From Caldisericia bacterium (GTDB taxonomy: Bacteria > Caldisericota > Caldisericia > JAAYUI01), in NCBI GenBank assembly GCA_963674785.1, contig OY771555.1, positions 1,472,001 through 1,536,000 of the forward strand: 64,000 nt of DNA. The letters are read 5' to 3'. Positions 430-17,274 of this stretch are shown here, one piece after another. The position numbers were made by a program, and so were the translations under genes. The notes under the pieces are model-generated. The model was not told the origin of the DNA, searched no databases, and was given only the letters and a program-made list of their open reading frames with translations. Position 1 is the first letter of the stretch; every line of letters starts with the position of its first letter.

Positions 430-1593
430 ATGAAAAACAAAAAAACATTTATTTTACCAGTAATTCTTCTGGTTTTAGTTTTTGTCGTATCCTGTGCAAC
501 AAAGGAAACCTTAGTGCTTGAAAACATAACAATATCAACTGATTCACATCCAGAATTTGTTCTAAAGAACACAGACAATCTTTCAGAAGAGCAACTCAAA
601 AAGGATGAAAAAATAGCATCTGCCCTCAACAAAGCCCTTACAGACTACCCAGAACTCTCAACCATGCTTGAAGCAGATATGATAGATGGAGGAAGCAACA
701 GTTACATCTATGAAGGTTCAGAACCATTCTTCAAAACATTGAATGAATTTACAAATGAAAACTACAAAAAAGCTAAATCAATGTTCCCAGACATAACCTG
801 TGAAGAATTCTACTACTCGGTAGCGATTGGGTATGGGATTGCAAAATCAACCATGATTGAAGAAACAACTATAGAGAATATTTTTGAGTATGAGACTTCT
901 GATGGATCGAAAAGTCCTGAGACTCTAACCATTAAACCATCATTTGATGACGTAATGGTGCATGCCTTCTGGGCATCATATTTTGGTGAAAGGTTTGAAA
1001 CAAACCTGAGTTTTGACCAAACTGACCCTACTGTTTATGATGAAATCATAAAAAACAATCCTGATCCAGATGTTTATGGTCAGTTGATTCTCGATACTCC
1101 TGCGAATCTTGAGATGATGATTAAAAGTCAGATCATGTTTATCCCAATAGCTCATGAATATGAGAAGTGGTGTGCTGAAAAAAAATTAGAAACCAGAACC
1201 AGGAATATAGTTTCTGTAGGGATAAGATATGGTGGTAATGATGTTCTTACCAGACCTCTAAGAGAAACTCTAAACTCATTCGGACTCTCTGACAAGCCAC
1301 ATGATTTGAGTAGTGAGTTTATGGAAGTTGGGACTGCTGCTATGACATATTCATTATTGACAAGAGACAACTCGAGTAAGAGCGGTGGTGGAATACAGGT
1401 AGGGGATATAGGTTGGGCAACCGTTAGGTACGCTGATTATTATGGTGCATCTGGTTTCAGAACCGGTTATAAACTTATAACTGCCAACGCATTAGTTCAG
1501 TTTGCATCTTTATGCAAAATAAACTTAGGCGGAAACATCGTTCAATGGGCATATACAAATGAGATTACTGGATCTGGGAGACTGGCTAAATAA
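430..1593 (+). CDS. Uncharacterised lipoprotein, paralog A
   Basis: 387 aa, SD upstream, basic N-terminus plus hydrophobic stretch plus VVSC lipobox; colinear with next ORF. Confidence 0.85.
   Translation: MKNKKTFILPVILLVLVFVVSCATKETLVLENITISTDSHPEFVLKNTDNLSEEQLKKDEKIASALNKALTDYPELSTMLEADMIDGGSNSYIYEGSEPFFKTLNEFTNENYKKAKSMFPDITCEEFYYSVAIGYGIAKSTMIEETTIENIFEYETSDGSKSPETLTIKPSFDDVMVHAFWASYFGERFETNLSFDQTDPTVYDEIIKNNPDPDVYGQLILDTPANLEMMIKSQIMFIPIAHEYEKWCAEKKLETRTRNIVSVGIRYGGNDVLTRPLRETLNSFGLSDKPHDLSSEFMEVGTAAMTYSLLTRDNSSKSGGGIQVGDIGWATVRYADYYGASGFRTGYKLITANALVQFASLCKINLGGNIVQWAYTNEITGSGRLAK
952..1171 (+). repeat. 220-bp direct repeat, copy 1 (identical to 2213..2432)
   Basis: Base-by-base identity from GTAATGGTGCATGCC to GAGAAGTGGT, offset 1261. 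Confidence 0.9.
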
Positions 1594-1681
1594 GTGAGTC
1601 TATTTACAAACCATACCAATGTTTGCATCTTTTTATATCTTTAATGAGGAAAATAATCAACGGAGGGTATTGAAGAATAAC

Positions 1682-2860
1682 ATGAAAAGATCAACATCAA
1701 TAGCATTATCTGTATTGCTGATCATAACATCATTTACCATGTTCATCTCATGTGGTAATGGTGAAACAGTGGATAATAATGAAACCTGTTCATTAGATGG
1801 TATCTCCATATCAACAAATGAAGGTGGGGGAACACTGTTCATCTTAGATGAAAAAGGCTTATCTGATGAAATACTTAAACAAAAGAAGAACATCACAGCA
1901 TCTTTAAATGAAGCAATATCCAAGTATCCAAACCTAAGTGAAGTACTCAGTGATGACGAGAAGAATCAATCATCTTTCCTTAAAACAATGCCGTCCTTTT
2001 CTGATGAAAACTTCAAAAAAGCACAATTAATGTTCCCAGACATCACTGAAGAACAGTTCTATTATCACTCGGCTATTGGATATGGGATTGCAAACAAAGC
2101 AGTAATCGAAGAAATAACAATCGGCAATGTCTTTGATTACATAACCAATGCAGGAACAGAGAATGAAGAAAAGAGTCCGACAACCATTACTTTAAACACA
2201 TCATTTGATGATGTAATGGTGCATGCCTTCTGGGCATCATATTTTGGTGAAAGGTTTGAAACAAACCTGAGTTTTGACCAAACTGACCCTACTGTTTATG
2301 ATGAAATCATAAAAAACAATCCTGATCCAGATGTTTATGGTCAGTTGATTCTCGATACTCCTGCGAATCTTGAGATGATGATTAAAAGTCAGATCATGTT
2401 TATCCCAATAGCTCATGAATATGAGAAGTGGTACAAAGAAGAAGATATAACCAAAAAAGAAAGAGATGAGTTTTCAACAGGCATCAAATATGGTGGCAAC
2501 AATGTTCTTACAAAACCTCTCAGAGAAACACTAAACTCATATGGACTTTCAGATAAACCTCGTGACCTTAGTGATGAGTTTATGGAGATCGGAACAACTG
2601 CAATGACATATTTGCTACTAACACAAGATAATGCAAGCAAGAGTGGCAATGGCACCCAAGTAGGTGATATGGGTTGGGCAAGTGCAAGGTTTATTGCATT
2701 CTATGATCGATCAGCTGGGTATGATTTATTAGTTGGGGAGATGTCTTTTGAATTTGCTTTAGATAAAGAATTCGTTTCTGGCGGAAACCTTCTTGATTGG
2801 GCATGGTCAGATGAGAAAAATCTTGGTGGAACAGGTATGCTCGAAAATAAACCTAAATAG
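1682..2860 (+). CDS. Uncharacterised lipoprotein, paralog B (start at MKRSTS preferred over 1619)
   Basis: MKRSTSIALSVLLIITSFTMFISC signal/lipobox; strong similarity to 430..1593. Confidence 0.85.
   Translation: MKRSTSIALSVLLIITSFTMFISCGNGETVDNNETCSLDGISISTNEGGGTLFILDEKGLSDEILKQKKNITASLNEAISKYPNLSEVLSDDEKNQSSFLKTMPSFSDENFKKAQLMFPDITEEQFYYHSAIGYGIANKAVIEEITIGNVFDYITNAGTENEEKSPTTITLNTSFDDVMVHAFWASYFGERFETNLSFDQTDPTVYDEIIKNNPDPDVYGQLILDTPANLEMMIKSQIMFIPIAHEYEKWYKEEDITKKERDEFSTGIKYGGNNVLTKPLRETLNSYGLSDKPRDLSDEFMEIGTTAMTYLLLTQDNASKSGNGTQVGDMGWASARFIAFYDRSAGYDLLVGEMSFEFALDKEFVSGGNLLDWAWSDEKNLGGTGMLENKPK
2213..2432 (+). repeat. 220-bp direct repeat, copy 2
   Basis: Identical to 952..1171. Confidence 0.9.
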
Positions 2861-2949
2861 AGATAAGACCAAAAGATATATATCACACATCATAAATTGC
2901 TCTTTTTTCTTCCTTATATATTTATATTTCGATTTTCTTGTCGAGTTGC

Positions 2950-2977
2950 TTGACTTATCAAAATTAGTTCATATTCT
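2950..2977 (+). promoter_or_regulatory. Putative sigma70-type promoter of MATE gene
   Basis: TTGACT-N16-TATTCT. Confidence 0.5.
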
Positions 2978-3014
2978 AACCATATCTAGCCAAATAAACT
3001 AATTAGGTGAATTC

Positions 3015-4424
3015 ATGAACAAGCGAAAAAATATCAATGATCCAGAAATAATGGGAAAAGAATCTATTGGGAGACTTCTTTTTAGGTTTTCAATGCCAGC
3101 AATTATAGCGATGATGGTGCAAGCGGTCTATAATGTTGTGGATAGAGCGTTTATTGGGCATTATGCGGGGTTGAATGCCTATAACGGGATTTATGTAGCA
3201 TTTCCAATTATGATGGGTTTGATGGCGATAGCTCTCCTTTTTGGCATCGGTGGTTCCAGTCTTTTTTCAATCAGACTTGGTGAGGGCGACAGAACTGGAG
3301 CGATGAAACTCCTTGGAAATACGACTATGATGCTCATCCTTTCATCAATATTGGTTACAATACTCGGGTGGGCTTTTGCAGAACCACTTCTAAAACTTTT
3401 TGGGGCATCTGAAGAGACAATGCCTTATGCGATCCAGTATATCAGGATAATTTTCTCTGGAAATATTTTTATGATGCTTGGGATGGGATTAAACAACTTC
3501 TTAAGGGCTGAGGGAAAAGCAACAATTGCTATGACAACAATGCTTATTGGAGCGGTTACAAATATGATTTTTGATTATCTCCTCATTGTTGTTCTTGGAT
3601 GGGGAACGGCGGGGGCTGCTTGGGGAACCGTTTTTGCGAGAATTCTAGTCTGTTGTTGGATCTTTTATTATTACTTCTCTGGACGAGTTGCGGTGCCTTT
3701 TAAGGTTTCGATGATGAAACTGGAATCAAAAATCATTAGTTCTGTGATGGGACTTGGAGTCTCGGCTTTTTTCCAGCAGATAAGCATGGTTATAATGACC
3801 GCAGTTTTAAATAACGTTCTCCTCAGACTTGGTGGAGATGTTGCAATAGCCGTTATGGCAACTGTTTTTTCTGTGATGGTAATGATATATCTTCCAACAA
3901 TGGGTATCGCTCAAGGAGCTCAACCAATATTTGGGTTCAATTTTGGTGCTAAGAAGTATGCAAGACTAAAAAAATCGTTGATAATATCTGCTGTTGTTGC
4001 GTTTTCCTTTGGTTTTGTTGGGTTCCTAGTTGTAAAACTTTTTTCTGCTCAATTAACTCAGATATTTGTCTCGAGCAGTTTGCCCAATGGTGCTGAGGTA
4101 ATCTCGATGACAGCAAAGGTCATGCCGATATTTTTGATGGTGCTCCCATTGACTTCTTTACAGGTTATTGGTGCGGGTTATTTCAGGTCGATTGGGAAGG
4201 TGTGGCATGCGATGGGACTTGGGCTTCTCAGGCAGTTCATCTTCTTTATTCCGATACTGTTTATCCTGGCAAGCAGATTTGGGCTTGATGGTGTTTGGTA
4301 CACTGGCCCTCTTGCTGATGTTTTGGCGTTTGTTGTGACAGGAATGTTTATGATCATAGAGATAAGAAAACTCAACAAAAACATTGACGAAAAAATCTCA
4401 AATCTAAAAGAAGAAGTGCTTTAG
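3015..4424 (+). CDS. MATE family efflux transporter (MepA-like)
   Basis: 469 aa, many TM segments; FSMPAIIAMMVQAVYNVVDRAFIG, NMIFDYLLI, QGAQPIFGFNFGAK motifs. Confidence 0.93.
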   Translation: MNKRKNINDPEIMGKESIGRLLFRFSMPAIIAMMVQAVYNVVDRAFIGHYAGLNAYNGIYVAFPIMMGLMAIALLFGIGGSSLFSIRLGEGDRTGAMKLLGNTTMMLILSSILVTILGWAFAEPLLKLFGASEETMPYAIQYIRIIFSGNIFMMLGMGLNNFLRAEGKATIAMTTMLIGAVTNMIFDYLLIVVLGWGTAGAAWGTVFARILVCCWIFYYYFSGRVAVPFKVSMMKLESKIISSVMGLGVSAFFQQISMVIMTAVLNNVLLRLGGDVAIAVMATVFSVMVMIYLPTMGIAQGAQPIFGFNFGAKKYARLKKSLIISAVVAFSFGFVGFLVVKLFSAQLTQIFVSSSLPNGAEVISMTAKVMPIFLMVLPLTSLQVIGAGYFRSIGKVWHAMGLGLLRQFIFFIPILFILASRFGLDGVWYTGPLADVLAFVVTGMFMIIEIRKLNKNIDEKISNLKEEVL

Positions 4425-5164
4425 TTAGGAAACTTTGCGACAACTACTGTTACGTTGTCGCTTCCACCTTTTGACAAAGCAGCACTAACAAGTTTTTCTG
4501 CGGATGTCTTAGGGTTTTTATACTTCTTTATAGTTTTTTCTATTTGTTTATCAAGAACATGTTCAGTAAGACCGTCTGTGCAGAAGAGCATGTATTTTGT
4601 GTCTTCAAAAGGAATACAGAAATAGTCAGGATTAATTTTTTCTGATATACCTATTGCCCTTGTTATTCTGTGTCTGCTTGGATGATTTTTAACCTCATTT
4701 TCCTCAATTTTTCCTACAGAGAGCATTTCATGAATCCAGGTGTGGTCAGTCGTTATTTGTTTAAACTCATCTTTTTTGTTGATCAGATATGCTCTGCTAT
4801 CCCCGACAGAAAAAACATGAATATAGTCTCCCAAGATTATGCCCATTACAATCGTCGTGCACATGCCAAATAGTTCTGGTCTTTCGATACTTGAGTTGTA
4901 AATATTGTTGTTTGCTTTTTCGATTGCGCTTATGGCAGTAGTTTTTATGTTCTCGGTTGTAAGGATTTTTGATTTAATCTCTTCGGCGATTATTCTTATC
5001 GCGAGGAAAGATGCCATTTCACCAGCAGCCCTTCCACCGACACCGTCGGTGACCATGACGATGTATGGCCGACCGTGATGATCAGGACGAATTATCGAAA
5101 AATGATCTTCGTTCGCTTCCTTTACTTTTCCTTTGTGTGAATGACCGTCTAGCACTATCGACAT
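4421..5164 (-). CDS. PP2C/PPM family Ser/Thr protein phosphatase (Stp1/PrpC-like)
   Basis: NED, DGVGG..GEMAS, GDSRAY, T.DH, ITRAIG, CTDGL, DNVTVVV motifs all present. Confidence 0.95.
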   Translation of the reverse strand: MSIVLDGHSHKGKVKEANEDHFSIIRPDHHGRPYIVMVTDGVGGRAAGEMASFLAIRIIAEEIKSKILTTENIKTTAISAIEKANNNIYNSSIERPELFGMCTTIVMGIILGDYIHVFSVGDSRAYLINKKDEFKQITTDHTWIHEMLSVGKIEENEVKNHPSRHRITRAIGISEKINPDYFCIPFEDTKYMLFCTDGLTEHVLDKQIEKTIKKYKNPKTSAEKLVSAALSKGGSDNVTVVVAKFPN

Positions 5165-5245
5165 ATTGTCATCTCATTATGAGGACTCTTTCTTATTTAT
5201 GCAACCCCACTTTCATTTTTTATATATGTTTGTATAATGTGTCGT

Positions 5246-8200
5246 GTGACACATAGAATAATCGGTGATAGGTTTGAACTTAAAAAAAGTTTGAATGAAA
5301 ACCAAACTCTTTGGGAATCGATTGATATTGAGTCTGGAGAAACTGTTCTTATTAGGTTGCTTGATATTTCAAAAAACAGTTCTAGGGGATGGGTTAGACT
5401 CGAATCGAATCTTGAGGAGATAAAAAAGATTGACAGTCAATATGTTGTAAAGACCATCGAATGGGGGGACTGTTCAGAGGGGAAGTACATCGCCATGGAG
5501 TGGTTTGATGGACAGACCTTATCCGAAACAAAACTAGATTTAGCCGATTCGGTCGAGGTTTTGCTGGCTGTTGCGAAGGGATTAAAAGACCTTACCGATA
5601 ATGATGTGATTCATCCCTCCATTTCTGCAAACAAGGTTCTCGTCTCAAGCGATGCAGTTAAAATCTCTGGTTACGATACTCTGATTTCAAATAGAACAAA
5701 AATAAAAAGGATTCGACCTAACGAAATAATCGACACACTTCAGTGGGTGGCTCCTGAGATTCTTACAAAAAGAAAACACAATGTTTTGTCGAACATCTAC
5801 AGTTTCGGCTTATTGGCATATTTTATACTGACTGGAGAGCTACCCTTTAAAGATACAAATCCAAATAGTCTTGTTTGGTCGATCAAGAATTCAACTCCAG
5901 TCCCAGTTTCAAACCTTAATCCTGCAGTTCCGATAACGCTTGAAAACTTGATTCGAAGATTGCTTCACAAAGAGCCGTCATCAAGAATTCAGTCATTTGA
6001 AGAGATAATAAAAAGGCTCGAAAAAAGTTTGACAGAACTTGGAAATAAGTCTTCGATAAGTATTGCAACTGGACTGATGATAAACCGAGGAAGACTGATT
6101 GGTAAACACAAAGAACTTTCTTCGGTTGGAGATGAAATAAGGAATCCATCTGGTAATGTGATTTTGCTTTCAGGCGAGAAAGGGTCTGGGAAAACAAGAT
6201 TTCTACAGGATATAATTAACAATGCGAGAGAGCTTGATATCGATATACTTAGTCTGAATTGTGTTCCATCTATGAAATCAAAATCCTGGTCAGGCTTGGG
6301 GCAAATCATTGAAGAGATAATTGAGGACAATGGAGTTGGTGTAATCGGTAGATCTAAATACAAGGATATTTTCTCGATTATTTATTCCGAGTTCAGCTCG
6401 AGATCAATTCTGATATCCTGCGAGAGTAACTTTGATAAACAGTCTTGGCCAAAACAGCTTGAGATTGCTTTTCCACATTTATTGAAGGAAATTTATAAGG
6501 ATAAAAGAGTGCTTCTTGTTGTTGATGGAATTGAGAATTGTGACAGGGAGACGATTGACTTAATTGGTAAATCTTTAGTTAGCAAAAAACAAGAAAAAGT
6601 AACATCAATTCTTGCTTGTGATGAGGAATTTGTTTTAGAACTTCAAAACAGAATGGGTGTGAAAATAGACTGCAAAATGGTCGAACTTAGACCTCTTTCC
6701 CCTAGCCAGTCTCATGAGATGATTTTAAGCAGTTTGGGTAATTCTGAGATACCCCATTATGTAATTGACACCTTACATACAAAATCGAAAGGGAATCCAT
6801 TAAAACTGCTCCAACTAACAGTTGACCTTGTTTCGAACAAGAAAAACATCATTACTGGGGAAATGCTAGATTCATCGCTTATACCCTCAAGTTTTGAAGA
6901 GATAGCAAAGTTAAGGATTGATGGACTGGCTCTAAAACAGAAGGAAATTCTTTCCGAGGCGGCGGTTATTGGTGAGTCTTTTTCTGAGGGTTTCCTCATT
7001 GAAATCTCTTCAAGTCCCAGGTCGCTTGTTGAGGAAGCTCTTGATTTGGCAGTTATGGCAATGATTTTGACAATGGTTAAAACTGCAAATGGGTTTAAAT
7101 ATCAGTTTGTTTTTTCTGAGCTGCGAGACTATTTGCTTTCATTGATTAACAATGAGCTAGGTAAGCAATTACATGACCGGGCTCACAAAGTAATCAAACG
7201 GGTTTGTGGGGGTAATCTGGATTACAATCTGGAAGAATACGTTTGCCATGTCATGCAGGGAAGCGACCAATCAATGGCGATTCCTCATCTAATGAAGTTA
7301 TCTGTAAAGCTATTGAATGATTCGAGACTTTCAAAAGGTATTGAATATGCAAAGCTAGCAAAAGACCTTGCTGTAAAATCTGGGATAATATCATTCATCA
7401 TAGATTCAGCGATCAACTATTCAAATCTGATGATACTTGAAGGAGATATTGAATCCTCTAAAACGATTCTTTACGGTACACATCGGGCAATGACTCAGGC
7501 TGGTGCGGATGTTTTTAGCGAGGTGAAGCTACTTATTGCAATTGCCAATTTCGAGACAAGATTTGGGGCGATATCAGCATCCGAAAATCAGATAAGAAGA
7601 GCGTACTATAAGCTGGGTAGAAATATTGACAATTCTACTCTTATAAAGCTCCATATCCTTGAGAGTATGAATAATTTTCATATCAATATGGAGACTTCAA
7701 TCTCCCATGCTGATCGAGCTTATGCTATTGCTAAGAAAAATCCCACCTCGGTTCTGAGATGTGGAGCTTTAAGAAATAAAATGACCATATCAACTTTTCT
7801 TGGAGATTTTTCTGATTCAAAAGAGTTGCTAGACGAGATCAGAAGGTACCCAAGAATAGGTGATGGACAGGTTGAGTGTGATTTAGGAACTTCGATCCGA
7901 GAAATAGAGCTTGCTATTGAGTCGGGAGAATATGAGCTTGCTGAGGAACTTATTAACAAGTATCGAGATTATGCAAGAAAGATAGGATCAAGAGTACACA
8001 TAGCTTATAGCCTGTATCTGAAATCGTTAAATCTTTCGCACAAGGGGAGATTGAATCTATCACTTAATTACTCTTTCGATGCATTAGAATTGGCAAGGAA
8101 AATTGGTTACAATAGACTGATCGGAAAAATATTGGTGAATATTGGCTGGGTTTACGTTCATCAAGACAAAATTCTAAAAACTCGTAATGTTATTGAAGAA

Positions 8201-8893
8201 TGCAGAGATTTTGACCGAAAAACAGACGAGATATATAAAACTGAGGGATTGAAAAACTTAGATGGTTGGTGTTCCCTTTTTGATGGTAATCATAAAAGGG
8301 TAATAGAGATGATCAATAAGGTTAACGAACCTGGAGCAAACTTCAAAAGAACCGATATTTTTGATTCAAGAGTTTTGAAGGCAGTCCTTCTGATGAGAAA
8401 TAATGAGTTTAAGGACTCTCTTAAGGAAATCCAAGAAATCAAAAAAGATTTTGAGGACATTATCCACTATCCGACATATTCATGTGAAATCAAACTCCTT
8501 GAAGCAGATCTTGGCTTATCAATGCTTGATGATTCTTTCAAAAAAATGAAATCAAGAAGAAACACAAAATCATTTTTTTCTAGGATTGGCTTGAGTAATG
8601 TTGATCAAAAGAAGGTCACTGAGACCATTATTGACCAAGCATATATTGAGGCCATTTCATCAGGTCTAGAACTTTATTCAGTGTTAGCTCTGATGGCCAG
8701 AGTAAGATTTCATCTAATCATGTTTGACTATGAAGAAAAGGATAAAAAACAGCATCTTGATAAAATTAAGGAGCTTATAGACATCATCTCTGAGCTTTCA
8801 AGTCAGATGTTCAATCCAAAGCTAACTCAGCAGATGGGGGAATTGGTTGCTGAGTACAATTTAAGAGAAAACCTCTTAAAAGGCTTGGTGTGA
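5246..8893 (+). CDS. Pseudokinase - AAA/STAND NTPase - TPR-like protein (GTG 5246 preferred; ATG 5237 overlaps the -10 box)
   Basis: Kinase fold remnants (IAMEW, APE, IYSFG, LTGELPF) but no Gly loop, VLIR, HPS for HRD, no DFG; Walker A GEKGSGKT; GNP motif; helical repeat C-terminus. Confidence 0.85.
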   Translation: MTHRIIGDRFELKKSLNENQTLWESIDIESGETVLIRLLDISKNSSRGWVRLESNLEEIKKIDSQYVVKTIEWGDCSEGKYIAMEWFDGQTLSETKLDLADSVEVLLAVAKGLKDLTDNDVIHPSISANKVLVSSDAVKISGYDTLISNRTKIKRIRPNEIIDTLQWVAPEILTKRKHNVLSNIYSFGLLAYFILTGELPFKDTNPNSLVWSIKNSTPVPVSNLNPAVPITLENLIRRLLHKEPSSRIQSFEEIIKRLEKSLTELGNKSSISIATGLMINRGRLIGKHKELSSVGDEIRNPSGNVILLSGEKGSGKTRFLQDIINNARELDIDILSLNCVPSMKSKSWSGLGQIIEEIIEDNGVGVIGRSKYKDIFSIIYSEFSSRSILISCESNFDKQSWPKQLEIAFPHLLKEIYKDKRVLLVVDGIENCDRETIDLIGKSLVSKKQEKVTSILACDEEFVLELQNRMGVKIDCKMVELRPLSPSQSHEMILSSLGNSEIPHYVIDTLHTKSKGNPLKLLQLTVDLVSNKKNIITGEMLDSSLIPSSFEEIAKLRIDGLALKQKEILSEAAVIGESFSEGFLIEISSSPRSLVEEALDLAVMAMILTMVKTANGFKYQFVFSELRDYLLSLINNELGKQLHDRAHKVIKRVCGGNLDYNLEEYVCHVMQGSDQSMAIPHLMKLSVKLLNDSRLSKGIEYAKLAKDLAVKSGIISFIIDSAINYSNLMILEGDIESSKTILYGTHRAMTQAGADVFSEVKLLIAIANFETRFGAISASENQIRRAYYKLGRNIDNSTLIKLHILESMNNFHINMETSISHADRAYAIAKKNPTSVLRCGALRNKMTISTFLGDFSDSKELLDEIRRYPRIGDGQVECDLGTSIREIELAIESGEYELAEELINKYRDYARKIGSRVHIAYSLYLKSLNLSHKGRLNLSLNYSFDALELARKIGYNRLIGKILVNIGWVYVHQDKILKTRNVIEECRDFDRKTDEIYKTEGLKNLDGWCSLFDGNHKRVIEMINKVNEPGANFKRTDIFDSRVLKAVLLMRNNEFKDSLKEIQEIKKDFEDIIHYPTYSCEIKLLEADLGLSMLDDSFKKMKSRRNTKSFFSRIGLSNVDQKKVTETIIDQAYIEAISSGLELYSVLALMARVRFHLIMFDYEEKDKKQHLDKIKELIDIISELSSQMFNPKLTQQMGELVAEYNLRENLLKGLV

Positions 8894-11800
8894 AGAATTT
8901 AGGGAACTACGAGGTTTTATCAAAAATTGGTGTTGGTGGTGCTGGAGTTGTATACAAAGGAAAACATTTTGAAACGGGAGAGATTGTTGCGATAAAAACT
9001 TTTTCACCTCCAGAAGGTCTGAAACGAGAATCTCTGGAAAAGCTCGCTCACAGGTTCACGCAGGAAATTGACCTCTTAAAATCGTTTGACCACAAAAATA
9101 TTGTAAGATTTATTGATGCAATTAATACTGGTGATGAAAAGTTTTTTGTTATGGAGTATATTGATAATATCTCTCCTAAGATCGGTGAAAAGTGGCCGGT
9201 TGATCTTGTTGTTGATGTTATTATTCAGATTTCTCGAGCTTTAGAGTATGCTCACAATAAAGGTATTATCCACAGAGATATTAAGCCTGAAAATATTTTG
9301 GTTGGCGGATCGTTCGAAAACCCCGAATCCAAATTGACTGATTTTGGAATTGCATTTAAAACCCAAGATGTTTCGAGAATGACTGTTACTGGAGAGATTA
9401 TCGGAACATTCTTTTACATGTCTCCTGAGCAGATTGAATCCAGAGGATGCACACAAAGAACAGACATATATGCTCTCGGTCTTGTTGCTTATGAGTTTTT
9501 GACTGGAAAACGTGTGCATGATGGGAATACTCCTGCAAAGGTGATAGGTCAGATAATGCTTTCTTCTCCGCCACCACCTTCCTTCTTTAGACCTGAGATT
9601 CCCGACTGCTTGGATAAATTGATATTACGTTGTATTAGAAAAGATGAGGATGCAAGATTCCAGAGCGCAAAAGAGCTTTTGTATGAATTAGAGAGCCTCA
9701 GGGCAATTGGTTTTGATGGTTCGCAGACAAGACAGATAACCTTCACAACTCAGTTTTCACCGCTTGTTGGCAGAGATAAAGAATTATTAGAGCTAACTCA
9801 TCTTCTTGCGGAAGTAAAAGAGAAATCATCAAAATATGTCTATCTTGTTGGACCAACTGGAATCGGCAAAACAAGATTGGCCGGTGAGTTGAGCTCTGTT
9901 GCAAGGTCATGGGGTGCAAGCTATATTCCTGTTTCGGTTACAAGAACCGAATCAAAAAATCCATTCGGTGTTATTGCAAAAATTGCTGAGAATTTGATTG
10001 CAGAAAAGATTCCTGAAGAGAAATGGGTTAGAGTTGGGTTAGCATCACTTTCAACATCTCTTGCAAAAAAACTTGGAACCGACCCACCGAACCTCAACTC
10101 AAAGGAACTATTCCATTTGATTGAGGATGCGATTATCTGGCTACTAAGAGACAGATGTAAAAAATCAACTGTGCTTGTGACTGTCGATGATTCTCAATGG
10201 TCTGATTCTGGTTCAGCAGCTATTGCTGAAAAAATAATTAACTATGTAGATGATATTTCATTGTGTGTAGTTTTTACGATCAATACAGATATGACTTCAC
10301 CGAGATCGCTTGTGTATAAGATGGTAGAAAAAACAAGACCGAGATGCAAAGTGATTAGACTTCAGCAACTTAGCAATCTTGATGTTAAGCAATACATTCA
10401 AAATACACTTGCCGTAAGTACTATACCTGAAGAATTATTGGATTTTATCTGCAAGGAAGCTGGGGGAAACCCACTTTATATCGCTGAATTGTTAAGATCG
10501 GTTATAAAAAATGGTAGCGTAAAAAGAGATAATGGGATACTATCTGTTGACAAGGAAAGACTTATTGTTCCTGACAAACTACTTAAATATCAGAATTTAG
10601 CGTTTTCAAATCTTGATGAGAGAACTGGTAATCTCATAACTGTTGCGGCTGTAATTGGTCCAACTTTTTCTGCAAAACTACTTTCTGAGGTTTCTGGATA
10701 CAAGATATTTGATGTTCACTCTCATCTTGACCATGCCCTAACAAATCAGGTGCTTCGTGTCATGATGACTCCAAATGGAAACGTCTACAGTTTTTCACAT
10801 GAACAGATGAGAATAAATCTTGTAAATTCAACAAGTTTGCATTTTAGGCAAGGAGTTTCTCAAAGAACCGCACAAGCAATAGAAAACCTATATTCGGGAC
10901 AGATCGAAAACCATATTGAGAGGCTTATTTATCATTATCTACACGGTCTTACACCGACAAGTGCTATCCCATACCTCCTTAAGGCTGGCAGATTCTCAGC
11001 TGACCGATTCTATCATAAGGAAGCATCAATTCATGTAAACAGAGCCCTTCGCCTGGCTGAAGAAAATGGATTGAATAAGTTTGTTGTTTTATCTATGGAA
11101 TTGCTCGCTGATATAAACCAAAACCTTGGAAAATCAAAGGATGCTCTTGAAAAGATTGAAAAAGCTCTTGAATATTCAAAACTTGTAGAAGATATAAAAG
11201 TGGACTACAAAGCTAGACTTTTTAGGAAGTATGCCAATTATAGAAAAACTGCGACAGGAGAAATTTCCGAGAGCATAGGTATGATAGAAAAGGCACTTGA
11301 TTTGTTATCCAATTCTGAGAATTTGGATGAAATTGCAAGATCAGAATTGGCTTATGCGAGCCTTATAAGAGATCCGAATGAAGCACTTAAACATATAGAT
11401 AAGGCTCTAAAAATCTTCGAACAACTTGAAAACAATAGCATGCTTGTGAATGGGTATGGCACAAAAGCGAATTTGCTTAGGAAGATGAATAGAATCGATG
11501 AGACTGTAGAGGTTTTAGAAGAAGCCCGATCGATCGGTGAAAAGAATGGTTTAGAGGCGTCACTCGAAGGCATCTATGCGACACTTGCAAGTGTCATGTT
11601 TAATAAAATCAGTGATGTTGCCAAGGGTAAGATGTATGCAATGAAGGCAAGGAAGCTTGCCAGAAGAACTGAAAACCTTGGTCTTGTCGGATTCATGAAT
11701 TATGTTGAGGCATTCCAGCTTTATCAATTTGGAATACTTGATGAGTCAGAAAAACTACTCCTTGAATCGCTTGAGATCTGGGAAAAACTTGGACAAAAAC

Positions 11801-12543
11801 CAAGACTTTTCAGTACGATGGCACTTTTGGCATGGGTTTATCTTGAACTTGGAAACTTAAAAAAAGGTTTTGAGTATCTCAATAAATCAAAGGAGCTTCA
11901 TGACAGTTCAAATCCAGGCGATGTTGATATCGACCTTGTATGTCTTGAAATCGATCTACTCAAAGAGAGCGACCAAAAGAAGGAAGCTATAGCTTTAGCA
12001 CAGCAGAACTTGAAAAATCTGGATGACCAGACTGTTGTCAGCAAAATAAACTTTTATTATGCCTTGGCTTCTTTATATATTGATAGTGATGACATCAAGA
12101 ATGCATGGAAATATCTGAAAACCTCTCGAGATCTATTAGGTGATCAGAAGTCTTTATATATGGATTTTATTACTCTTATCTCATATGCAAAGATTTTGAC
12201 GCAGATAATGCAAAGATGCGAAAATGTCAATTACTTGTCGAAGATGCTTATGCTAGCGGGGACTGGATTGATAGGAAAAGATTTGTTATCACTTACGCAG
12301 TCAGTTTATGAGGATGCTTTCTTGTCAGCGCTCAATGGTGGAAACAAGCTACATGTTGTTAGATATTATCTTGAACATAGCAGATTTTTAAGAGAGAGTC
12401 TCAAGTATAAAGATAAAGAAAGCAATGGCACAGACCCCCTTATTGCTTCGGAATTGACGATTGCTGAGGAATTGGTGAAGGAGCTTTACCATCCAAAGAT
12501 CGAATCTCAAATACATGTCGAGATCAACAAAATATATAAATAG
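8890..12543 (+). CDS. Ser/Thr protein kinase - AAA/STAND NTPase - TPR protein
   Basis: GVGGAGVV, VAIK, HRDIKPEN, DFG, SPE; LVGRDKEL, Walker A GPTGIGKT, Walker B VTVDDSQWSD, GGNPLY, FSH; TPR-like repeats; GTGA overlap with upstream stop. Confidence 0.93.
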   Translation: MKNLGNYEVLSKIGVGGAGVVYKGKHFETGEIVAIKTFSPPEGLKRESLEKLAHRFTQEIDLLKSFDHKNIVRFIDAINTGDEKFFVMEYIDNISPKIGEKWPVDLVVDVIIQISRALEYAHNKGIIHRDIKPENILVGGSFENPESKLTDFGIAFKTQDVSRMTVTGEIIGTFFYMSPEQIESRGCTQRTDIYALGLVAYEFLTGKRVHDGNTPAKVIGQIMLSSPPPPSFFRPEIPDCLDKLILRCIRKDEDARFQSAKELLYELESLRAIGFDGSQTRQITFTTQFSPLVGRDKELLELTHLLAEVKEKSSKYVYLVGPTGIGKTRLAGELSSVARSWGASYIPVSVTRTESKNPFGVIAKIAENLIAEKIPEEKWVRVGLASLSTSLAKKLGTDPPNLNSKELFHLIEDAIIWLLRDRCKKSTVLVTVDDSQWSDSGSAAIAEKIINYVDDISLCVVFTINTDMTSPRSLVYKMVEKTRPRCKVIRLQQLSNLDVKQYIQNTLAVSTIPEELLDFICKEAGGNPLYIAELLRSVIKNGSVKRDNGILSVDKERLIVPDKLLKYQNLAFSNLDERTGNLITVAAVIGPTFSAKLLSEVSGYKIFDVHSHLDHALTNQVLRVMMTPNGNVYSFSHEQMRINLVNSTSLHFRQGVSQRTAQAIENLYSGQIENHIERLIYHYLHGLTPTSAIPYLLKAGRFSADRFYHKEASIHVNRALRLAEENGLNKFVVLSMELLADINQNLGKSKDALEKIEKALEYSKLVEDIKVDYKARLFRKYANYRKTATGEISESIGMIEKALDLLSNSENLDEIARSELAYASLIRDPNEALKHIDKALKIFEQLENNSMLVNGYGTKANLLRKMNRIDETVEVLEEARSIGEKNGLEASLEGIYATLASVMFNKISDVAKGKMYAMKARKLARRTENLGLVGFMNYVEAFQLYQFGILDESEKLLLESLEIWEKLGQKPRLFSTMALLAWVYLELGNLKKGFEYLNKSKELHDSSNPGDVDIDLVCLEIDLLKESDQKKEAIALAQQNLKNLDDQTVVSKINFYYALASLYIDSDDIKNAWKYLKTSRDLLGDQKSLYMDFITLISYAKILTQIMQRCENVNYLSKMLMLAGTGLIGKDLLSLTQSVYEDAFLSALNGGNKLHVVRYYLEHSRFLRESLKYKDKESNGTDPLIASELTIAEELVKELYHPKIESQIHVEINKIYK

Positions 12544-15487: not shown

Positions 15488-16210
15488 TTATTTTTTATCC
15501 GACAAAAATCCCAAATCCACTTTCTTTTTTGAGTCAGTCTTTTTTGTTTTTCTGACAGATCTCTTTGTTTTTGGTTTATCTACTTCTTTTTTTGATGCCT
15601 CAGCTTTTATGCTTTTCGACTCAGTTTTCTTCTTGGTTTGAGACGATTTCGTCTTTTCTTTCAGTTTTACAGAAATAGATTCCATGAATTTTTTATCGAT
15701 GACAGTTACTTCATCAACGGTTGAACGCAAGTCGTCATGTGGAGTTTTTCCGCAGAAAAGATGAACAACTACACCTTCACTTTTTATCACATGTAACGCA
15801 GGGATAAAATCAGAATCCCCTGCAAGGATTGAAGCGTGAGTGATAAGCCCTTTTGTTGCAAGCATTACAAGGTCAACGCCAAACATCAGATCAACCCGCT
15901 TTTGCTCATATATTGGGTGACCTTTTTGGTCTTTTCCTCGATACTGAAGTTGACCTAGCCTGTTTTCAAATCGTGGGACGGTTTCTAGTTTTTTGAAAAA
16001 CTCTGTTTTTTCTTCGTAAAGCTCTTTTTGCCAGTCGGTTGGTTCATCAACAATATATGGCGGACAGTGGTAATAGTATGACCTCAAAAGATCATATCCA
16101 TTACTCATTTTGTCTGTTAAAAGCTTGTAGTCTACCTCAAACCCATCCCATTCATTTTTAAGAAGGGCATCAAGATAGCCCCCATCAATAAAATTTGCTA
16201 CTCTATTCAT
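15488..16210 (-). CDS. NYN domain (LabA/DUF88, PIN-like fold) protein with Lys-rich tail
   Basis: FIDGGY, EQKRVD, GDSDFIPAL, DLRSTVDE motifs; start at MNRVANF preferred over 16219. Confidence 0.88.
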   Translation of the reverse strand: MNRVANFIDGGYLDALLKNEWDGFEVDYKLLTDKMSNGYDLLRSYYYHCPPYIVDEPTDWQKELYEEKTEFFKKLETVPRFENRLGQLQYRGKDQKGHPIYEQKRVDLMFGVDLVMLATKGLITHASILAGDSDFIPALHVIKSEGVVVHLFCGKTPHDDLRSTVDEVTVIDKKFMESISVKLKEKTKSSQTKKKTESKSIKAEASKKEVDKPKTKRSVRKTKKTDSKKKVDLGFLSDKK

Positions 16211-16256
16211 ATCCTTCATGATAGTTTGTTTTTTTTATATAGCAAATTTTTGATGA

Positions 16257-17264
16257 CTAACAGAAGTTTTTTTCAACCCACTTGATTGCATTTACCCATT
16301 CTGGGTTTGAGTCTACAGCAAAATCTTCTGCAACCTTTTGGAGTTTTGGAATATCTTTGTAGCTATCTAGTGAAATCTCTCCATGAAGCATTGGATTGAG
16401 TCGCAGGTAAGAATCCCCAAGAATCTGGTTGCATTCGAATGTGTCTTTTTCAGAAGTTGCACCATCAAAAAGCATTCCAAGAATTGGTAACGAAGGCACA
16501 CCGTTCCCACCTTTAAGCCAGAAGAGGTATCCACAGTTATAAGGGCTTTTAACAGATGTTTCAGGGATTCTGGCACTGGCGTATCCTGTGCCTATTGAAA
16601 GAACCGTTACATCGTCTCTGTGAACATCGTCATTTGCCTGAAGCGCTTTTGCCAAGGCAAACATGCAGGGGTTGTTAGCGAAAGTTCCGCCATCGGTAAG
16701 ATATCCAAGAGTTTTGATGTAATGAGGGGGGAAATATGTTGGCGCAGCACTTGTTGATAGTGCCGCATCAAGATTCAAAACATTCGAAGTGTTATCAAGG
16801 CTCGATAGAGAGATTGGTCTCCAGCCATCAATATCTGTACTGTCGAGTTGGAATGTTGTTACAAGGACATGTCTATCTAAATCAGATAATGGCTTTGGTT
16901 GTCCAAGAACATCAATCAATCTTTCTTTCAATCCTTCATCAGTGTATTTGACATGTAAGATTTGACCAAAGTTGAATTGGAAAAGTTGTTTCAAGAAATA
17001 AAGAAGTCTATCAATAAGGCTAGTTGGGTGGTATCTTTTGAAAATCTTTTTGCAACTTTCAGGGTCATCATAAATCTGCACAACCTCATCAATCGGTGCT
17101 CCAGATGCAAGGGCGATAGATATGATACCCCCTGTTGATGTACCCGAAAAAAGGTCAACATGCTTCAAGAAACCTGTTTTATCATCAAGTTTTTTAATAA
17201 GGATTGACGTGATTAGTCCTCTTATACCACCACCATCTAGTGATAAAATCTTGTAGTTACTCAT
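16257..17264 (-). CDS. Patatin-like phospholipase
   Basis: LSLDGGGIRG, GTSTG nucleophile, SAAPTYF, DGG..ANNP, LSIGTG. Confidence 0.93.
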   Translation of the reverse strand: MSNYKILSLDGGGIRGLITSILIKKLDDKTGFLKHVDLFSGTSTGGIISIALASGAPIDEVVQIYDDPESCKKIFKRYHPTSLIDRLLYFLKQLFQFNFGQILHVKYTDEGLKERLIDVLGQPKPLSDLDRHVLVTTFQLDSTDIDGWRPISLSSLDNTSNVLNLDAALSTSAAPTYFPPHYIKTLGYLTDGGTFANNPCMFALAKALQANDDVHRDDVTVLSIGTGYASARIPETSVKSPYNCGYLFWLKGGNGVPSLPILGMLFDGATSEKDTFECNQILGDSYLRLNPMLHGEISLDSYKDIPKLQKVAEDFAVDSNPEWVNAIKWVEKNFC

Positions 17265-17274
17265 AGGCAAAAGC

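Follow-up and report, generated by a model that had tools for sequence, protein, structure and literature searches.

A tandem pair of kinase-STAND paralogues, one live and one predicted dead, beside the sole PP2C phosphatase detected in a Caldisericia genome

Why would a bacterium keep a full-length kinase paralogue that has lost its catalytic residues directly beside one that has kept them? The question is raised by two genes, here called gene 1 and gene 2, in a stretch of 64,000 nucleotides from a Caldisericia bacterium (assembly GCA_963674785.1, contig OY771555.1, positions 1,472,001 to 1,536,000). The window, as this whole stretch is called below, is part of a single-contig genome of 2.23 Mb (G000). 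Both genes encode an N-terminal protein kinase domain, a central NTPase module of the STAND type (signal transduction ATPases that carry numerous domains) and a C-terminal region of tetratricopeptide repeats (TPR), a layout for which the Pfam signal is weaker in gene 1. An earlier note on this DNA had proposed an obligate pair, resembling the paired nucleotide-binding leucine-rich repeat receptors (NLRs) of eukaryotic immunity, with the dead copy acting as sensor, decoy or regulator of the live one.

The gene 1 open reading frame (ORF) spans 5237-8893 on the forward strand and encodes 1218 aa counted from ATG; an in-frame GTG at 5246 is an alternative start, and the resulting N-terminus matches the length of the orthologues. 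Gene 2 (8890-12543, forward strand, 1217 aa, GTG start) begins within the stop codon of gene 1. The junction reads TTG GTG TGA, giving a GTGA overlap at 8890-8893 and an arrangement of translational coupling. In a BLASTP comparison the two proteins are collinear paralogues with 21% identity over 1256 alignment columns (E 1e-45). The earlier note had described two genes of nearly equal length, joined at GTGA and sharing one kinase-NTPase-TPR layout; ORF coordinates, junction and alignment all agree with it, and the pairing of paralogues is confirmed far beyond chance.

The kinase domain of gene 1 (residues 1-280; 5237-6076, forward strand), delimited by Pfam, motif alignment, AlphaFold2 and Foldseek, still matches Pfam Pkinase with 69.0 bits (cut-off 31.7). 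Its Gly-rich loop is replaced by SLNENQTLW (5288-5314), a site that also carries a two-residue deletion, and VAIK has become VLIR (5345-5356), turning the β3 Lys into Arg. The catalytic loop reads HPSISANK (5612-5635), altered at both the HRD Asp and the catalytic Asn, GYD stands in place of DFG (5669-5677), and the αF segment, SNIYSFG (5789-5809), has lost its Asp. The αC Glu is altered as well, while APE is retained (5750-5758). The loss of Gly loop, Lys, catalytic Asp and DFG and the persistence of APE, Walker A and GNP had been claimed before, and the motif coordinates agree; the αC-Glu-aligned residue and the αF Asp are losses beyond that list. In the available text of the Atlas preprint, a pseudokinase is a kinase domain that misses at least one of VAIK Lys, HRD Asp and DFG Asp (10.1101/2025.01.12.632604), and gene 1 has lost all three. 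By these residues, gene 1 of the window genome is a predicted catalytically dead kinase copy.

An AlphaFold2 model of residues 1-280 is confident (mean pLDDT 86.3, pTM 0.85), and the top PDB matches of the modelled domain in Foldseek are the kinases PknB, Stk1 and PknA (TM 0.74-0.81, E 2e-18). Taken with the lost residues, this model and its matches suggest that the kinase fold has been retained and the chemistry is gone. Arg12 and Glu75 are invariant across gene 1 and might be the counterparts of the salt bridge in the PknB back-to-back dimer, a correspondence offered as a lead only.

Gene 2 presents the opposite picture. Its kinase domain (8890-9744, forward strand) is of the canonical Hanks type for Ser/Thr kinases and reaches 167.8 bits against Pfam Pkinase (same cut-off). 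GVGGAG lies at 8929-8946, VAIK at 8986-8997, HRDIKPEN at 9271-9294 and DFG at 9340-9348, with SPE at the APE position. Copy 2 had been called a canonical kinase with a Walker B DD, and every Hanks motif could indeed be located by coordinates. Across the gene 2 clade, the Gly loop, VAIK Lys, HRD, DFG and the APE-type motif are intact in all seven full-length members.

The loss of catalytic residues in gene 1 is not the property of a single genome, nor is it uniform. The gene 1 clade was surveyed in 13 proteins, ten from genomes and three from a protein library, which come from a narrow lineage and are related rather than independent. None has a Gly loop, and the αF Asp is likewise absent (0/13, versus 7/7 in the gene 2 clade). 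The β3 Lys persists in 5/13, the HRD Asp in 7/13 (Glu in two others) and the DFG Asp in 8/13 (Glu in one other). Two activation-segment residues, Ser151 and Thr154 (5687-5698 in the window), are invariant in 13/13. In four species of the window's genus the catalytic-loop site reads HPSISANK, HFSITANN, HPNLRSKS and HPLISVDN, all different. These four sequences and the mosaic counts suggest that the gene 1 clade could do without catalysis from its base onward and that drift followed in each lineage. The pattern shows an apparent order of decay, in which the Gly-rich loop and the αF Asp were lost first and the other catalytic residues decayed lineage by lineage, to a degree that is, as far as the motifs can tell, complete in the window's genus.

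A library fragment of 284 aa, P0018, is a close relative of gene 1. A matched stretch of 111 residues (query 1-111, NTPase-TPR) is 89% identical, and where the catalytic loop used to be, the 11 residues that separate HP from D are wholly unlike those of the window, with near-identical flanks. The printed sequences suggest a short compensated frameshift, which would fit relaxed constraint at that site.

Did the rest of gene 1 decay along with its active site? The ratio of nonsynonymous to synonymous substitution rates (dN/dS) of the pseudokinase domain is 0.024 between the orthologues of G005 and G009 and 0.049-0.052 among the single gene 1 copies of one genus (g2, below), in each case below what the NTPase and TPR regions of those genes give. 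The TPR region, at 0.04-0.11, is not diversifying, and the g2 single genes as a whole give 0.07-0.11. Saturated dS in the window's genus left amino-acid identity to three orthologues as the sole comparison there. The pseudokinase domain is 63/54/52% identical, the NTPase module 46/39/38% and the TPR region, as the least conserved part, 42/28/22%. The pseudokinase domain is thus the best-conserved part of gene 1, on a par with the live kinase domain of gene 2 (60/57/49%). That the dead copy is intact and selected, as the earlier note had held, agrees with these figures: by them, gene 1 is under apparently strong purifying selection, with no neutral decay. The kinase fold, Ser151/Thr154 and the NTPase motifs can all be shown to have stayed under such selection, so far as substitution patterns indicate it.

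The NTPase module of gene 1 (about residues 281-700; 6077-7336, forward strand) matches Pfam KAP_NTPase with 36.2 bits (cut-off 20), and AAA_16 with 27.7 bits, below the cut-off of 32.6; the region is collinear with gene 2, whose module (9745-10989, forward strand) passes the AAA_16 cut-off with 58.2 bits. Gene 1 has Walker A GEKGSGKT (6173-6196), Walker B VLLVVDG (6509-6529) and GNP (6791-6799); gene 2 has GPTGIGKT (9850-9873), LVTVDD (10174-10191) and GNP (10465-10473). Walker A follows GxxGxGK[TS] in 17/17 aligned proteins and Walker B follows hhhhDD in 16/17. The exception is the DG of the window's gene 1, a variant unique to it, with DD in the other nine of the ten gene 1 clade members found in genomes. 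In NCBIfam, the NTPase part is weakly akin, far below the cut-off, to the ATPase region of kinase/cyclase fusion proteins.

The helical-repeat, TPR-like sensor region of gene 1 (7337-8893 including the stop, forward strand) is collinear with the TPR region of gene 2 (10990-12543 including the stop, forward strand) and stays below Pfam cut-offs on its own (TPR_12 18.6). The gene 2 region matches TPR_12 with 64.8 bits (cut-off 30.1) and TPR_MalT with 36.7 bits, below the cut-off of 45. A profile of the NTPase-TPR parts of both clades matches TPR structures, generic ones apart from the PH0952 sensor and MalT domain III (1hz4). A phmmer search with the NTPase-TPR parts of each protein against PDB sequences returned no matches.

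The origin of the pair can be traced within one Caldisericales family. Among the 40 relatives searched, full-length gene 1 orthologues (E 1e-126 or better) occur in nine of the ten other genomes of the family, in three genera, and outside the family gene 1 matches stop at the kinase domain. A gene 1 clade profile found members in 10/93 Caldisericota genomes and in 0/82 outside the family. Gene 2 orthologues are present in 6/10 family relatives, namely in all genomes of genera g1 and g3 and in 0/4 of genus g2. Wherever both genes occur they are adjacent (7/7 genomes), with a 4-nt overlap of ATGA or GTGA in five and a 1-2 nt gap in two, so that the tight pair is found in seven of the ten gene-1-holding genomes.

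Proteins of this kinase-STAND-TPR type, about 1200 aa long, number four to five in each genome of the family. A tree built on the full-length sequences of 42 such paralogues places the gene 1 clade, including the single genes of g2, as sister to the gene 2 clade with 100 in the Shimodaira-Hasegawa-like approximate likelihood ratio test (SH-aLRT). The sister branch obtains 99 when the kinase domain is removed and the site-heterogeneous model LG+C20 is used, and 100 when four further library proteins are added; within both clades the rows group by genus. The trees are quick ones with SH-aLRT support only, and no row was left out. From the sister clades, genes 1 and 2 can be shown to be the apparent products of one tandem duplication that predates the three genera, with gene 2 lost later in g2.

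One of the remaining paralogue clades, represented outside the window at G000:C1:1963399-1967049 (reverse strand), reads DYG here in place of DFG, and its Gly loop has partly degenerated (to SETRVASV here and S.AGMSSV in relatives). This third STAND-kinase clade may be a second kinase drifting to inactivity.

An exhaustive search of the library brought the gene 1 clade three more full-length members and the gene 2 clade one; a word-index search gave only three close relatives. Scans of genome and metagenome contigs with gene 1 alignment patterns found clade members only on Caldisericales/Caldisericia records, of which L137 and L138 correspond to G002 and G006; the remaining matches are distant kinase-ATPase proteins. 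Live/dead pairing was sought elsewhere in the superfamily at 159 loci, with flanks of up to 6 kb. Two adjacent kinase-bearing ORFs occur at five, of which three are the Caldisericales pair itself and two (L063, L143) have no live/dead split. At L143, a metagenome contig of another lineage, the adjacent kinase-ATPase genes (1255-5787 and 5791-8205, both forward) carry VAFS for VAIK; both thus lack the β3 Lys and have HRD and DFG intact.

A different form of the same association is seen in a sister family, f5 (L018, L020-L024; for example L022:271-3438, reverse strand), in which single proteins of about 960-1070 aa contain two tandem kinase domains. Canonical motifs (GRGG.S, VAIK, H[RQ]D, DFG) mark the first; the second has no Gly loop, Gln for the Lys and [ST]LG for DFG. 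The live-then-dead order holds in six of the seven loci examined, and L019 is degenerate in both domains. These kinase-pseudokinase fusions suggest that such partnering recurs within the class.

The most constant neighbour of gene 1 is not gene 2. Divergently from gene 1 lies P0003 (4421-5164, reverse strand, 247 aa), a PP2C Ser/Thr phosphatase that matches Pfam PP2C and PP2C_2 and the NCBIfam Stp1/IreP model with 241.6 bits (cut-off 230). It is the sole PP2C detected in the genome (one match each for NF033484 and PF13672 genome-wide), which has eight kinase-domain matches and two FHA matches. The phosphatase is adjacent to gene 1 and divergent from it in 10/10 gene-1-holding genomes, the window genome and nine relatives. 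The intergenic region measures 72 bp in the window (5165-5236), or 81 bp if gene 1 starts at GTG 5246; with ORFs called from their earliest start, relatives have 2-85 bp between the two genes, and the ORFs overlap in two of them. The synteny of PP2C, pseudokinase and kinase that the earlier note had suggested looking for is therefore complete for its first two members and holds for the pair in 7/10 genomes, gene 2 having been lost in g2.

A promoter and terminator scan did not rise above shuffled sequence (34 sites versus 29.8 expected, and 7 versus 6.1). In public sequencing runs, five rows of DNA or unspecified type from two studies contain the stretch or part of it, and none is listed as RNA.

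What lies beyond the PP2C varies: genus g1 has MatE there, genera g2 and g3 a radical-SAM/SPASM cluster. The block that precedes the PP2C in g2/g3 is conserved (L034:2932-4320, forward strand, and neighbours; L031, L032, L033) and consists of a protein of approximately 880 aa that belongs to no known family, a radical-SAM/SPASM enzyme and proteins of about 385 and 165 aa. The enzyme has a PqqD-like N-terminus and resembles maturases of ribosomally synthesized and post-translationally modified peptides.

On the other side of the pair, 21 nt after gene 2, lies P0004 (12565-13740, forward strand, 391 aa), the probable third gene of the operon. It has a signal-peptide-like N-terminus and a Cu_amine_oxidN1 domain (Pfam, 114 bits). 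Its C-terminal half has no Pfam match and resembles SGNH-type esterases by an Atlas feature score of 0.97 to SGNH-hydrolase clusters, which serves as a lead only. A full-length orthologue directly follows gene 2 in 5/7 pair-holding genomes and is found nowhere else in the family. The Cu_amine_oxidN1 domain is expanded in the window genome (60 matches to P0004 at E <= 1e-10, many in very large secreted proteins) and is probably an envelope-anchoring module of the lineage.

Further downstream are a NYN-domain protein and a patatin-like phospholipase (15488-16219 and 16257-17270, both reverse strand). The phospholipase strongly matches the PADLOC 'Effector Phospholipase' models (190.6 bits), with no cyclase nearby. 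Apart from the window genome, only G002 and G003 share both genes downstream of the pair, and in G002 the NYN gene abuts gene 2.

What, then, is the dead copy for? It is moderately probable that the locus encodes a vertically inherited cytoplasmic Ser/Thr-phosphorylation module, made up of PP2C with genes 1 and 2, joined in most cases by a secreted esterase-like protein, in which gene 1 would be a non-catalytic regulatory paralogue within ordinary signalling of the PknK/MalT type. The accessible text on PknK of Mycobacterium tuberculosis describes a soluble kinase with a C-terminal STAND domain, related to MalT, and STAND proteins of this group in which ADP/ATP exchange and multimerisation become possible once a ligand binds the sensor arm (PMC4381067, PMC4601284). 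The E. coli transcription factor MalT and PknK share with the present proteins the order of a soluble N-terminal output domain, a STAND NTPase and a C-terminal MalT-like or TPR sensor. No PknK model is among the NCBIfam matches, and the likeness to PknK rests on architecture. What sets this locus apart is a coupled pair of paralogues, one of them dead, beside a PP2C; the PknK literature, in the portions available, describes no partner pseudokinase.

On this model genes 1 and 2 would act as switches, with a ligand on the TPR arm permitting nucleotide exchange in the NTPase module, and oligomerisation through that module would bring the N-terminal domains together. Gene 2 would supply the catalytic output and PP2C would reset the system. 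Gene 1 would contribute a second sensor arm and a scaffold, perhaps joining gene 2 through the homologous NTPase modules, or might instead be a phospho-acceptor at Ser151/Thr154. It would act on or with gene 2, PP2C or both, and could gate PP2C. As the linkage of PP2C and gene 1 (10/10) outlasts that of gene 1 and gene 2 (7/10), gene 1 would not depend strictly on gene 2, and the three other STAND-kinase paralogues of the genome may be further partners.

Several observations weigh against so simple a picture. Three genomes of g2 (G006, G008, G010) keep gene 1 and PP2C and have no gene 2 orthologue, and a fourth (G004, 93% complete) showed neither gene. The gene 2 orthologue of G003 has a single in-frame TAA in the N-lobe (L027:10621-10623); it is otherwise intact, with Gly loop and VAIK upstream of the TAA and an ORF of 1137 aa after it, and the TAA may reflect a recent inactivation or an assembly error. 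Retention of HRD and DFG among orthologues had been named in advance as a finding that would count against a dead partner; it is seen in part, outside the window's genus. In genus g3, gene 1 retains the Lys, HRD (HRE in one genome) and DFG, and the g3 proteins may have kept some activity, to judge from these residues.

A stronger version of the partnership can be envisaged, in which the two proteins form a hetero-oligomeric STAND signalosome. Gene 1 would be the sensor or nucleator, by analogy with NAIP/NLRC4 or HER3, and would recruit gene 2 through its ligand-bound NTPase; the dead kinase would activate the live one allosterically, and PP2C would be the built-in reset. This is possible, if doubtful. 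A complex prediction for the pseudokinase (1-285) and the kinase (1-285), each with its alignment, gave a score of 0.08 and a mark of 0.32 and was counted neither way. The idea of an obligate pair, as first put forward, does not survive the three g2 genomes, where gene 1 and PP2C persist under purifying selection without gene 2.

The eukaryotic systems that inspired this comparison match only in part. In the paired NLRs of plants and animals (RGA4/RGA5, RRS1/RPS4, NAIP/NLRC4) adjacent NOD paralogues are likewise found, one without the output activity of the other, and hetero-complexes are described in the accessible sources. Unlike them, the present genes are in tandem and translationally coupled rather than head to head, and their output is a kinase. 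The pairing here is also dispensable, one genus having lost gene 2, and shows no sign of immunity. Of the 'paired NLR' reading, the linked sister paralogues, one dead and one live, are borne out, and the immunity is not supported. Kinase-pseudokinase partnerships are represented by JAK JH1/JH2, HER2/HER3 and the plant tandem kinase proteins. All of these share with this locus a conserved dead kinase fold beside a live paralogue; unlike in them, each partner here has its own NTPase switch and sensor, and allosteric activation would be hypothetical.

At the other end, the two genes may act independently after duplication, on different signals and outputs, with gene 1 as an autonomous STAND scaffold that perhaps regulates PP2C only and stays beside gene 2 by operon inertia. 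This too is rather unlikely, and it has real arguments on its side: gene 1 persists without gene 2 in three genomes at the low whole-gene dN/dS given above, the paralogues are only 21% identical, and PP2C-gene 1 adjacency (10/10) is steadier than that of gene 1 and gene 2 (7/10). Inertia is harder to reconcile with the junction, an overlap of 4 nt or a gap of 1-2 nt in 7/7 pairs, kept across genera whose orthologues are only 25-30% identical; such constancy points to selected co-expression. Genes 1 and 2 are, moreover, mutually the closest of the four to five paralogues in each genome.

An anti-phage or conflict role, with the dead copy as sensor or decoy and the live kinase as executor, is far less probable. 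Avs-type receptors are built on a STAND-TPR chassis, the TPR region evolves faster than the other parts, and a patatin phospholipase resembling effectors of cyclic oligonucleotide-based antiphage signalling systems (CBASS) lies with the NYN protein 3-5 kb downstream in 3/4 genomes of the window's genus. That linkage is absent outside the genus, however, and the dN/dS of the TPR region (0.04-0.11) is not that of a diversifying receptor. The kinase domains do match the PADLOC kinase models PD-T4-6, mad6 and MkoA, but only within the kinase domain, as any Hanks kinase would, and the PP2C that matches the candidate model PDC-M21C (54.7 bits) is the only one detected in its genome. For the NTPase-TPR parts, the PADLOC check that bears on the defence side of the earlier note gave no convincing match, with no model for gene 2 and marginal ones for gene 1 (LmuC, E 0.0032; mad8, E 0.0089). 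Occurrence in 9/10 family relatives, trees that follow genus and a conserved chromosomal setting, its flanking genes shared within each genus, speak for vertical inheritance rather than for the patchy, island-like pattern of defence genes.

Least probable of all is that gene 1 is not truly dead and has an atypical catalytic or nucleotide-dependent activity, for which the partial retention of Lys, HRD Asp, Asn and DFG Asp in lineages beyond the window's genus, the very strong conservation of the domain and the kinase-fold precedents SidJ and SelO (as their available descriptions have it) could be cited, since every canonical catalytic position is changed in the window's protein and the catalytic-loop residues differ among four species of the genus, unlike in a relocated active site.

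The preferred reading, a phosphorylation module with gene 1 as its non-catalytic regulator, has a further bacterial comparison in the CP1 pseudokinases. These are described, in the accessible part of the work, as cytosolic Hanks-type domains linked to a predicted COG3899 ATPase, with unknown function (O'Boyle et al. 2025, PMC12599244). Their reported hosts are mainly cyanobacteria and proteobacteria, and GAF/FhlA or PAS domains often accompany them (PMC12599244), and the decay of their catalytic motifs is variable and mosaic within the family (PMC12599244; 10.1101/2025.01.12.632604). Gene 1, a pseudokinase fused to a P-loop ATPase and showing mosaic decay, is similar, by a comparison with CP1 as described there. 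It differs in its Caldisericota host and in having no GAF or PAS domain found by Pfam, and no live/dead pair is described for CP1 in the accessible text.

In the literature surveyed, with subscription journals mostly outside its scope and no supplementary tables, no coupled live/dead STAND-kinase pair is described in bacteria; the earlier note had known of none either. The live/dead pairing of STAND kinases appears undescribed, kinase-STAND proteins and ATPase-fused pseudokinases having already been published.

Bacterial pseudokinases and STAND-type kinases have been catalogued, yet their mechanisms are almost unexplored, and this locus amounts to a natural experiment: the same NTPase-sensor chassis is mounted on a live and a dead sister beside the sole PP2C, relatives show intermediate decay, and the live partner is gone from one lineage. 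A signalosome, if real, would be a prokaryotic division of sensor and executor between paired NOD proteins that arose to serve ordinary signalling, not immunity, and stages of pseudokinase evolution would be recorded in the mosaic decay from lineage to lineage. Should the products of genes 1 and 2 assemble together, pairs of NOD proteins split into sensor and executor would exist outside eukaryotic immunity, and the pair, soluble and with no membrane part, would offer a tractable model of allosteric kinase control by a pseudokinase. Should they not, the locus would still show clearly, in a deep-branching and little-studied phylum, a non-catalytic kinase fold under strong selection.

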